NCBI GenBank assembly: GCA_963666485.2
Contig: CAXXUO010000001.1
Span: forward strand, 672,001 to 736,000
DNA length: 64,000 bases
Direction of reading: 5' to 3'
Source of the DNA: Syntrophorhabdaceae bacterium
GTDB lineage: Bacteria > Desulfobacterota > Syntrophorhabdia > Syntrophorhabdales > Syntrophorhabdaceae
Position 1 is the stretch's first letter. Every line of letters starts with the position of its first letter. A model generated the notes under the pieces. That model saw only the letters and a program-made list of their open reading frames with translations, ran no database searches and was not told the DNA's origin. Below are positions 27,427 to 29,337 of the stretch, piece by piece. The position numbers and the translations under genes were made by a program.

Positions 27427-29337
27427 ATGGAAAGCATACTGCTCAACCGGATATACGGGAAAATAAGGCCGCACCTCGCCGGTCCCGATGATCCATACCT
27501 CGTGGCATCTATCGGGGAACAAAAACTGTACGTGTGTGCCGGGAAGACGGTGACCGGGGTCTACGCGGCGTCAACGTCGCGACTCGGGGTGGGCATCAGG
27601 GAAGATTCACTGAAGACGCCGCCGGGAGTCCACCGGGTATGCGAGAAGATAGGCGCCGATGCGCCCGAGGGCCGTATTTTCAGGGACCGCGAGGACACCG
27701 GGGTAGACTGGGACCACACGTCGGACGAAGAGAACATCATACTGACCCGCATCCTTCGTCTTGAAGGGCTTGAACCGGGCATAAACCGCGGACCTGGTGT
27801 CGATACGTACGAGCGGTATGTCTACATACACGGAACGAACCGGGAGAACGATGTCGGCACGCCGTTTTCCAACGGATGCATATGCCTTCGCAACGCGGAC
27901 ATTGTCTCGTTGTTCGATCTCGTCCCGGAGGGCACGGTCCTTTACATAGACCCTCCGCCCCTCGTGATCAACGGATATCCCCTGAAGAACGTCCATTTTA
28001 CCGGCATCTTCGGGACCGGGATGAGCGCGCTTGCCCAGTACTTGAGGTTCTGCGGGATAGAGGTTTCCGGGTCCGACCGTCTTCTCGCGAGCCCCGATAC
28101 ACAGGAAATGATGGAAAGCCTGAAGCTCCTCGGCTGCGTGATCGCTCACCAGGACGGGTCCGGGGTGACGGAGGGCACGGATGCCCTGTGCATATCGACG
28201 GCGATCGAGGAAACAAACCCCGACATCGCCGCCGCACGCAGCCGCGGTATCCCGATAATTCACCGCTCGGACCTTCTCGCGGGCATAATAGCATCGAAGA
28301 GGACCGTTGCCGTCGCGGGAACGAGCGGGAAATCGACGGTCACCGCCATGATATTCGAATGCCTCGATGCCTGCGGCATGTCCCCGTCGCTCATCAGCGG
28401 GGCGCCCCTCATCAGGCTCGAGGCGGGAGGCCTTATCGGGAACGCCTATTCGGGAGGGTCTGACCTGCTTGTTGTCGAGGCCGATGAAAGCGACGGGACC
28501 CTTGCGAAATACTCGCCGGACATATCGGTGATACTCAACGTCTCGAAGGACCACAAGACGATAGAGGAGATCACCTCCCTTTTCGCCGGCCTTATCGAAC
28601 GGTCGTCGTGGACAGCAACGAACAATGACGACCCGATACTCGCGAACCTTCCGGCAACTGTCCGTTTCGGCAGGAACAGGGCCGCGGCATGGCACCCCGA
28701 CCGGGAAGACCTCCATCCTTTATCGGTGAGCCTCACGCGCTGCGGCATCGAATACCGCCTGCCCGTTCCCGGGGAACATAGCCTCGAGAACCTCAAGGCG
28801 GCCCTGTGCGTGTGCGAGCACCTCGGGTGCGGCGGCGACGCCCTTGCGCGCGCTGTCGGGAATTTCGCCGGGGTCGCGCGCAGGTTCACGATAGTTCACA
28901 CGAAAAGCGGCGTAACAGTTATCGACGACTTCGCCCACAACCCGGCCAAGATCGCGGCCGCCATTACCGCGGCGCACGGCACAGCAGACCGGCTCATCGC
29001 CGCCTATCAGCCCCACGGTTTCGGTCCGACACGGTTTCTCAAGGACGAATACATCGCGTCGTTTCAGAAAATATTCCGCCCCGGCGATGAACTCTACCTT
29101 CTGCCCATTTACTACGCTGGCGGCACCGCGCAAAAAGACATATCCTCTCAGGACATCATCGATGGACTCGGAAAAGTCCCATTCCACGCCGAAGCCGTCA
29201 AAGACCGGGATGAGCTCGTTGAAAAAATAAGTTCGAGCGCCCGGCCCGGCGACTGCGTCATCGTCATGGGCGCCCGCGATCCGTCACTACCGGCCCTCGT
29301 CAGGAAAATAGTTGATATTTTCGGTGGGGAAGAATAG
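27427..29337 (+). CDS. Fusion: YkuD-family L,D-peptidase domain plus MurC/Mpl-like Mur ligase
   Basis: N-terminal KTPPG..YVYIHGT..SNGCICL (YkuD His/Cys); then VHFTGIFGTGMSALA, GTSGKST, EADESDG, DDFAHNP, YQPHG; one uninterrupted ORF. Confidence 0.9.
   Translation: MESILLNRIYGKIRPHLAGPDDPYLVASIGEQKLYVCAGKTVTGVYAASTSRLGVGIREDSLKTPPGVHRVCEKIGADAPEGRIFRDREDTGVDWDHTSDEENIILTRILRLEGLEPGINRGPGVDTYERYVYIHGTNRENDVGTPFSNGCICLRNADIVSLFDLVPEGTVLYIDPPPLVINGYPLKNVHFTGIFGTGMSALAQYLRFCGIEVSGSDRLLASPDTQEMMESLKLLGCVIAHQDGSGVTEGTDALCISTAIEETNPDIAAARSRGIPIIHRSDLLAGIIASKRTVAVAGTSGKSTVTAMIFECLDACGMSPSLISGAPLIRLEAGGLIGNAYSGGSDLLVVEADESDGTLAKYSPDISVILNVSKDHKTIEEITSLFAGLIERSSWTATNNDDPILANLPATVRFGRNRAAAWHPDREDLHPLSVSLTRCGIEYRLPVPGEHSLENLKAALCVCEHLGCGGDALARAVGNFAGVARRFTIVHTKSGVTVIDDFAHNPAKIAAAITAAHGTADRLIAAYQPHGFGPTRFLKDEYIASFQKIFRPGDELYLLPIYYAGGTAQKDISSQDIIDGLGKVPFHAEAVKDRDELVEKISSSARPGDCVIVMGARDPSLPALVRKIVDIFGGEE

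Follow-up and report, generated by a model that had tools for sequence, protein, structure and literature searches.

The gene at positions 27427 to 29337 (+ strand) of the window, that is, of the 64,000-nucleotide stretch at positions 672,001 to 736,000 of contig CAXXUO010000001.1 from a Syntrophorhabdaceae bacterium (assembly GCA_963666485.2), encodes a fusion of a YkuD domain with a Mur ligase. The YkuD half is likely an L,D-carboxypeptidase domain of the ElsL type, as judged from its sequence, and motifs and phylogeny identify the ligase half as a member of a third, unnamed clade of the MurC/Mpl family, neither MurC nor Mpl. On balance, the protein probably trims recycled tetrapeptide and ligates the stem peptide to UDP-N-acetylmuramic acid (UDP-MurNAc) with ATP, which would combine the roles of LdcA and Mpl; we interpret the fusion as a way of co-expressing two steps that follow each other. 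The literature searched, which lay largely outside subscription journals, contained no account of either the fusion or the clade. The features of the gene are as follows.

27427..29337, + strand: fusion gene, likely ElsL-type YkuD domain plus third-clade MurC/Mpl-family ligase (open reading frame, Pfam, NCBIfam, AlphaFold2)
27493..27948, + strand: YkuD domain, residues 23-174 (Pfam; top NCBIfam model NF040925, ElsL, 123 bits)
27829..27879, + strand: catalytic His135 (HGT) to Cys151 (SNGC) (alignment)
27982..29334, + strand: three-domain Mur ligase, residues 186-636 (Pfam, NCBIfam, fold comparison)
28318..28338, + strand: P-loop GTSGKST with Lys302; GxHGKTT in MurC/Mpl (motif comparison)
28924..28944, + strand: DDFAHNP, residues 500-506; Phe502 as in Mpl, Asn505 clade-specific (motif comparison)
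29008..29028, + strand: QPHGFGP, residues 528-534; Gly531 and Pro534 at the positions of the L-Ala-binding arginines of MurC (motif mapping)
29266..29280, + strand: MGARD, residues 614-618; Arg617 in 87/87 clade members, Gly in 16/16 MurC (alignment)

The original prediction described a single 636-residue open reading frame that combines a YkuD domain with a complete Mur ligase. This agrees with a frame that is uninterrupted from its ATG start to its TAG stop and with four Pfam matches, each above its curated cut-off: YkuD (residues 23-174, expect value (E) 7e-16), Mur_ligase (189-291), Mur_ligase_M (296-463) and Mur_ligase_C (485-617). The YkuD and ligase motifs quoted in that prediction are all present. 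The top NCBIfam models all score below their cut-offs, with 123 bits for ElsL (cut-off 270), 288 for MurC (335) and 107 for Mpl (389). A structure predicted with AlphaFold2 from a 139-row alignment has a mean local confidence (pLDDT) of 94.2 and a predicted template modelling score (pTM) of 0.92. The gene stands isolated between two genes on the opposite strand, and a promoter scan returned 0 sites. The domain architecture is well populated: the best 120 of 3677 matches are 614-681 residues long and contain YkuD and Mur domains in every case, the named source organisms among the matches listed being mostly Syntrophorhabdaceae. Of 55 same-order genomes, 38 have an intact frame, six have one that is broken or truncated by a contig end, and in 11 it was not found; the fusion is therefore dispensable. 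An assembly artefact is ruled out by the 120 two-domain homologues and the 38 intact frames. Across 12 copies, nonsynonymous polymorphism (pN) is 0.165 in the YkuD half and 0.145 in the ligase half, at synonymous values (pS) of 0.65 and 0.63, respectively.

The predicted likeness of the YkuD half to ElsL is borne out by the NCBIfam comparison, in which all other L,D-transpeptidase or YkuD models score no more than 30 bits. The domain fails the NF040925 cut-off of 270 bits, as do all genomes (0/201 above it) of a sample of Gammaproteobacteria, the class of the clade-bearing genome G031. ElsL-like genes occur in 150/201 genomes of this sample, and the listed matches score 118-210 bits; two of the 150 are unpublished (G187 and G265) and enter into none of the other results. 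In a FastTree phylogeny of 75 domains, the YkuD domain of the fusion groups with 37 gammaproteobacterial ElsL-like domains (support 85) and lies far from the three other YkuD proteins of its own genome; nagZ is found near 13 of these 37 loci. The tie to the characterised ElsL of A. baumannii, which cleaves M4 to M3 and requires its Cys (PMC8649774), runs via the NF040925 profile and not via direct sequence comparison. The catalytic His and Cys are invariant in 41/41 aligned rows, and the SNGC of this protein is atypical, with [ST]HGC in 116/121 homologues. As originally claimed, the protein has no signal peptide according to simple hydropathy: the top 11-residue mean within the first 35 residues is 0.61, compared with 2.9 and 3.1 in two of the other three YkuD proteins, both with hydrophobic leaders (where the third begins is ambiguous). 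Neither a wall-binding domain (Pfam) nor a membrane helix (hydropathy) was detected, and the fusion protein would be cytoplasmic. With 636 residues it falls outside the size criterion for stand-alone ElsL, 105-200 residues; proteins longer than 200 residues were discarded in the published orthologue search, so that fusions could not appear in its list (PMC8649774). All orders of Verrucomicrobia have been reported to carry ElsL orthologues, and Opitutus terrae to have no annotated MurC and a candidate at 29% identity (PMC6327494). Fusions of ElsL to a true Mpl in Gammaproteobacteria were considered and ruled out, as the long frames were GC-rich read-through and the 37 loci contained neither Mpl nor MurC.

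The ligase half keeps the P-loop Lys, the Mg-binding Glu and His, the ATP-binding Asn, Arg and Asp and the UDP-MurNAc residues of MurC, and its pocket retains His504, His530 and Ala616. The L-Ala site of MurC comprises His376, Arg377, Arg380, Tyr346 and His348 (PMC3060825). Both L-Ala-binding arginines (Arg377 and Arg380, H. influenzae numbering), mapped onto the ligase through the QPHRxxR motif, are replaced by Gly531 and Pro534. These two residues are found in 73/73 clade members outside a lineage, treated below, in which the clade provides the sole MurC-like ligase; the second Arg is kept in 16/16 MurC. Arg617 is present in all 87 clade members aligned, at a position where MurC has Gly. Mpl likewise lacks both L-Ala-binding arginines, and Phe502 and Tyr362 of the ligase are common to Mpl. 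However, the ligase is not an Mpl, because its branch is separate and the Mpl signature motifs AFFDKRSK, FAHH, EPRSNT and SNG (PMC3060825) are missing: the (S/T)AFFDKRSK loop is absent, and the C-domain marks FAHH, EPRSNT and SNG are replaced by FAHN, QPHGFG and GAR, with FAH alone shared. The sub-threshold scores given above refer to TIGR01082 for MurC, which a few clade members narrowly pass (for example with 340 bits), and to TIGR01081 for Mpl. Among solved folds, MurC structures come closest (E 2e-39, template modelling (TM) score 0.85 of the target), and the Mpl structure 3HN7 ranks lower (3e-27).

The clade was sampled by a pattern scan of 19/64 parts of the genome collection, in which 575/593 candidate stretches were confirmed and the best 80 retained. 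These 80 loci cover eleven NCBI phylum labels and have GT[SN]GK[ST], D[FY]AHN, Q[PL]H and GARD in common, the signature of the clade being GTSGKST, DDFAHNP, QPHG[FY]xP and MGARD. In a 36-row IQ-TREE phylogeny (28 members, six MurC and two Mpl) the members form one clade apart from MurC and Mpl, with a support of 99 in the Shimodaira-Hasegawa-like approximate likelihood-ratio test (SH-aLRT); support is 91 in a 108-row FastTree. The conserved catalytic residues, the altered amino-acid positions and the separate branch thus point to a catalytically whole ligase with a rebuilt pocket that is neither MurC nor Mpl. Mpl itself takes L-Ala slowly (0.7 versus 260 per min) and tetrapeptide slowly (5.9 versus 260 per min), and a murC(ts) mutant can be rescued by overexpressing E. 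coli mpl (PMC3060825). By analogy, the ligase likely retains some L-Ala activity.

At the 80 ligase loci a YkuD gene is fused in 23 cases, directly upstream in ten (nine of these overlapping or abutting) and within 6 kb in one, and the partner that is fused or adjacent in 33/80 is ElsL-like. A single clade for seven fused ligases in the 36-row tree was rejected (approximately unbiased test, p-AU 4.5e-5, picked after the first tree had been seen); the join of YkuD and ligase therefore arose or split more than once. Whole-genome searches covered 50 of the 80 loci, in assemblies that are incomplete and from organisms whose kin are not independent, three of which are also among the 55 relatives. 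A separate full canonical MurC was found in 44/50 genomes, pieces in two and none in four; 14 of these genes were fetched and confirmed by motif. An ElsL-like gene occurs in 21/50, each time at the ligase. Genes of the LdcA family S66 were found in 1/21 genomes with an ElsL-like gene versus 16/29 without. Among the 150 ElsL-bearing gammaproteobacterial genomes, the clade was absent from 80/80 tested, all with a stand-alone ElsL, where the best match reached 290 bits and clade members score at least 419; 49 of the 80 have a further match of 90-162 bits, not individually checked, which is where E. coli Mpl (149) also scores.

Another kind of partner is a YkfC-like SH3-NlpC/P60 protein, fused to the ligase in one three-record cluster, abutting it in L026 and encoded 1.7-2.3 kb downstream in three Chitinophagales loci. 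At L026:4021-9215, P0242, P0309 and P0310, a gene with Peptidase_C39-like, SH3 and NlpC/P60 domains abuts or is fused to the ligase and is followed by an Amidase_3 gene. No wider conserved operon extends past the YkuD gene. The long fusions P0243, P0244, P0245 and P0268 were set aside because of unrelated partners or as single records or frameshifted text. In G099 (L150, G099:C45) the fusion follows the last open reading frame of the division and cell wall (dcw) cluster by ~200 bp on the same strand, and in G110 (L143, G110:C2) it lies ~1.5 kb upstream of an AmiA-like gene. A PF02578 gene is located directly downstream of the ligase at L052:2313-3077; this family presumably includes the peptidoglycan-editing factor PgeF.

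The host genome (99.1% complete, 3.75% contaminated) provides a plausible setting for peptide re-use. As the original prediction had it, the fusion gene is not part of the dcw cluster. That cluster contains the canonical murC (546 bits), which ends 38 kb upstream of the fusion on the same contig and rules out that the fusion is the only MurC of the genome. The expected absence of ldcA and mpl is matched by searches of the host genome in which neither an S66 LdcA nor Mpl was found. AmpG scores 483 bits, above its cut-off, and its gene faces a PF07313 (AmiA-like, DUF1460) amidase gene (G000:C10:33942-34694) whose product lacks a hydrophobic leader; a nagA-like gene completes this region (G000:C10:32183-36099). 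Among the 55 relatives, AmpG and the AmiA-like gene each occur in 54; of the 53 genomes with both, 33 have them within 2 kb of each other. AmiA of B. uniformis splits GlcNAc-anhMurNAc-peptide into the disaccharide and the stem peptide (PMC4600125), and the ampG/AmiA-like pair is thus a possible NagZ-free entry to recycling. In the proposed pathway, AmpG would bring in the turnover product GlcNAc-anhMurNAc-peptide, from which the AmiA-like amidase would release tetrapeptide independently of NagZ and AmpD. The YkuD domain would then strip the terminal D-Ala, and the ligase would couple the resulting stem peptide to UDP-MurNAc, so that UDP-MurNAc-tripeptide is returned to the MurF step. The activity of the AmiA-like amidase would explain free peptide despite the lack of detected NagZ, AmpD, AnmK, MurQ and MpaA; the host genome has no match to the E. 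coli versions of the latter four. Its single Amidase_2 gene was rejected as an AmpD because it does not match E. coli AmpD and its neighbours are small, of membrane type and without Pfam matches. It lies between small genes that resemble a prophage lysis cassette (G000:C3:409500-412700) and likely codes for a prophage lysin.

Several observations weigh against this pathway. NagZ (GH3) and AnmK were not found in the host genome. AmpG and the AmiA-like gene persist in each of the 11 relatives that lack the fusion and are therefore not lost together with it; no such co-loss was seen among the 55 relatives. Across phyla, AmpG scores above its cut-off in only 9/55 clade-bearing genomes (27/55 at E 1e-40), and the remaining recycling neighbours of the ligase are scattered single cases. 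No YkuD gene is present in the fetched flanks of 46/80 ligase loci, 13/50 clade genomes (incomplete assemblies) have neither ElsL-like nor S66 genes, and an Mpl or Mpl-like gene exists beside the clade ligase in 2/50 (G031 and G041). The ligase is nearer to MurC than to Mpl in profile, fold and tree, every Mpl-specific peptide-site motif is missing, and the invariant Arg617 could, from its position in the alignment, stand in for the lost arginines in L-Ala binding. The main objection comes from the family of G042 (Elusimicrobiota), in which 41/41 genomes have one MurC-like gene, which scores 284-331 bits and never above the cut-off; the fetched members belong to the third clade. In 121 genomes of this phylum, canonical MurC was found in 81 (nine of which also have the second type), the low-scoring type only in 39 and neither in one. 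Five genomes of the family were checked, two of them apparently single-contig, and each contains MurA and five Mur_ligase_M genes. The scanned ones are MurD and MurE, and the remaining two are provisionally taken for MurF and FolC, judging from their scores and positions. MurD requires UDP-MurNAc-L-Ala. Since MurD is kept, the clade ligase of this lineage most likely adds L-Ala, and the Mpl-like function that the original prediction extended to the whole ligase subfamily cannot be assigned to all of the clade.

The same lineage also carries a change in the pocket: in 14/14 members Gly531 is replaced by Ala or Ser and Pro534 by Ser, which represents one evolutionary event, and neither ElsL-like nor S66 genes were found in the two genomes tested. 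The pocket change and the missing trimmers hint at a different role for the GxxP type. By analogy with Mpl, which uses L-Ala slowly, the lineage would fit a ligase with broad reach. Within this family (L059, L082-L087, L110-L117) the ligase has the motif QPH[AS]F[AT]S; its gene follows dapB at several loci, and at some it is arranged tail to tail with murE-murD.

These findings bear directly on the possibility that the ligase half is another MurC, adding L-Ala through a remodelled pocket in which Arg617 binds the carboxylate, and that the YkuD domain trims independently and is merely co-expressed. The proximity to MurC, the preserved His504, His530 and Ala616 and the sole-MurC family would all fit, and Frankia MurC paralogues substitute for each other (PMC7231273). 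However, a canonical MurC coexists in 44/50 clade genomes, the otherwise invariant Gly531/Pro534 pair is altered precisely in the lineage that relies on the clade for MurC (albeit in a single event), and the recurrent ties to two different stem-peptide hydrolases would go unexplained if the ligase were a redundant MurC. We regard a second MurC as unlikely, though it deserves serious consideration. The second type of hydrolase suggests yet another scheme, in which the ligase recovers smaller fragments, mainly L-Ala-D-Glu, for MurE after the tetrapeptide has been cut by the YkuD domain and then by a YkfC-type amidase. YkfC yields L-Ala-D-Glu from stem peptides (PMC4600125), YkfC-like proteins are fused or encoded nearby in the P0242 cluster and at L026, L053, L056 and L073, and the peptide-site motifs of Mpl are all absent. 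The usual partner (33/80 loci), however, is a trimmer from tetra- to tripeptide, and the NlpC/P60 match in the host genome is weak (36 bits); dipeptide salvage thus appears improbable.

The order of the two steps could also be reversed, with the ligase taking the tetrapeptide and the YkuD domain proof-reading UDP-MurNAc-tetrapeptide, or trimming the muropeptide before the amidase acts. A fusion would put the editor at the product, the substrate in the ElsL assay was the sugar-linked M4 (PMC8649774), and Mpl does accept tetrapeptide at its slow rate (PMC3060825). Sequence cannot separate this order from trimming before ligation, and we give it only a small chance. Finally, the YkuD domain might transfer instead of hydrolyse and so exchange the D-amino acid at the end of the peptide, or both halves might act on a substrate outside the cell wall. 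YkuD chemistry proceeds via an acyl-enzyme, and a score of 123 of 270 bits places the domain far from characterised ElsL. Yet the domain groups with ElsL-type proteins located beside nagZ, and the ligase keeps the nucleotide-sugar and ATP residues of MurC, which makes this explanation very improbable. Thus, trimming of tetrapeptide followed by ligation remains the preferred reading. It has in its favour the ElsL-type domain, the non-MurC pocket, the canonical murC elsewhere, the lack of a detected LdcA or Mpl and the plausible supply of free peptide. The recurrent ElsL-like partner at the ligase, the scarcity of S66 genes where that partner occurs, the absence of the clade from the gammaproteobacterial genomes tested and the low pN relative to pS in both halves also speak for it. 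Of the original proposal, channelling between the two steps and an Mpl-like role for the whole subfamily are not supported. A wider version is doubtful and offered tentatively: the third branch would be a stem-peptide ligase for any length from L-Ala to tripeptide, in which the job of Mpl was invented independently, allowing Mpl-free recycling in members of about eleven phyla. The ElsL trimmer would have joined it more than once, AmpG and a cytoplasmic AmiA-like amidase would feed it in the Syntrophorhabdales without NagZ or AmpD, and in one Elusimicrobiota family it would have wholly replaced MurC via two pocket positions.

Other regions of the window and the host genome were recorded in passing. 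A glmM-like phosphohexomutase region (window:35122-37423) lies 6.7 kb from the fusion and is preceded in coordinates by a 362-residue open reading frame without a Pfam match. An uncharacterised pair at window:19911-21613 consists of a 230-residue protein without a Pfam match and, after it, a GGGtGRT protein (PF14057), and at window:32071-35111 a gene of the histone-deacetylase family with a Cys-rich tail adjoins a hydantoinase/oxoprolinase gene. At G000:C9:211779-214861 a SpoIID-domain gene, a MurU-like nucleotidyltransferase and an AmgK-like kinase follow one another; of these, only SpoIID/LytB reaches its NCBIfam equivalog cut-off. The region G000:C3:38000-46000, which has long spurious GC-rich frames and holds the only Amidase_3 match of the host genome, may be contamination.

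Compared with known systems, the YkuD half resembles ElsL (LdtK) of A. baumannii in being leaderless, in its catalytic His and Cys, in its top-scoring family and in its branch among gammaproteobacterial ElsL-like proteins, but it is fused to a ligase and scores below the family cut-off, whereas ElsL works with a true Mpl. The ligase shares with Mpl (E. coli, Psychrobacter 3HN7; PMC3060825) the three-domain Mur architecture, the location outside dcw beside a canonical MurC, the missing L-Ala arginines, the DFAH motif and the proposed reaction; it differs in its separate branch, its low TIGR01081 score and its own motifs in place of those of Mpl. MurC (H. influenzae 1P3D, E. coli 2F00) is closest in fold, profile and ATP, Mg and UDP-MurNAc residues, and one clade lineage has apparently replaced it; here, however, the ligase has GTSGKST, DDFAHNP, QPHGFGP, YYAGG and MGARD, fails TIGR01082, lies outside dcw and is dispensable in relatives. 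The likely peptide-releasing amidase of the host belongs to the family of Bacteroides AmiA, and genes like that for YkfC accompany some clade members. The Bacteroides pathway has been proposed to be periplasmic and degradative (PMC4600125), whereas in the host the leaderless amidase is encoded opposite ampG and the peptide would be ligated again.

Mpl is already known to re-use intact stem peptides directly, and the separate enzymes LdcA, LdcV and ElsL are known to trim them; a 2026 review names these and Mpl as separate enzymes (PMC13204101). If the preferred reading is true, a convergent ligase annotated as MurC extends peptide recycling to Bacteroidota, Fibrobacterota, Nitrospirota, Planctomycetota, Elusimicrobiota and syntrophic anaerobes, and the interpretation of "second murC" genes would change. 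The sole-MurC lineage offers a natural pair for finding the determinants of specificity for L-Ala versus peptide, the least understood part of Mur ligases (PMC3060825). A single soluble protein would make both predicted activities testable together, and a recycling route so far known with Mpl alone would reach many little-studied bacteria.

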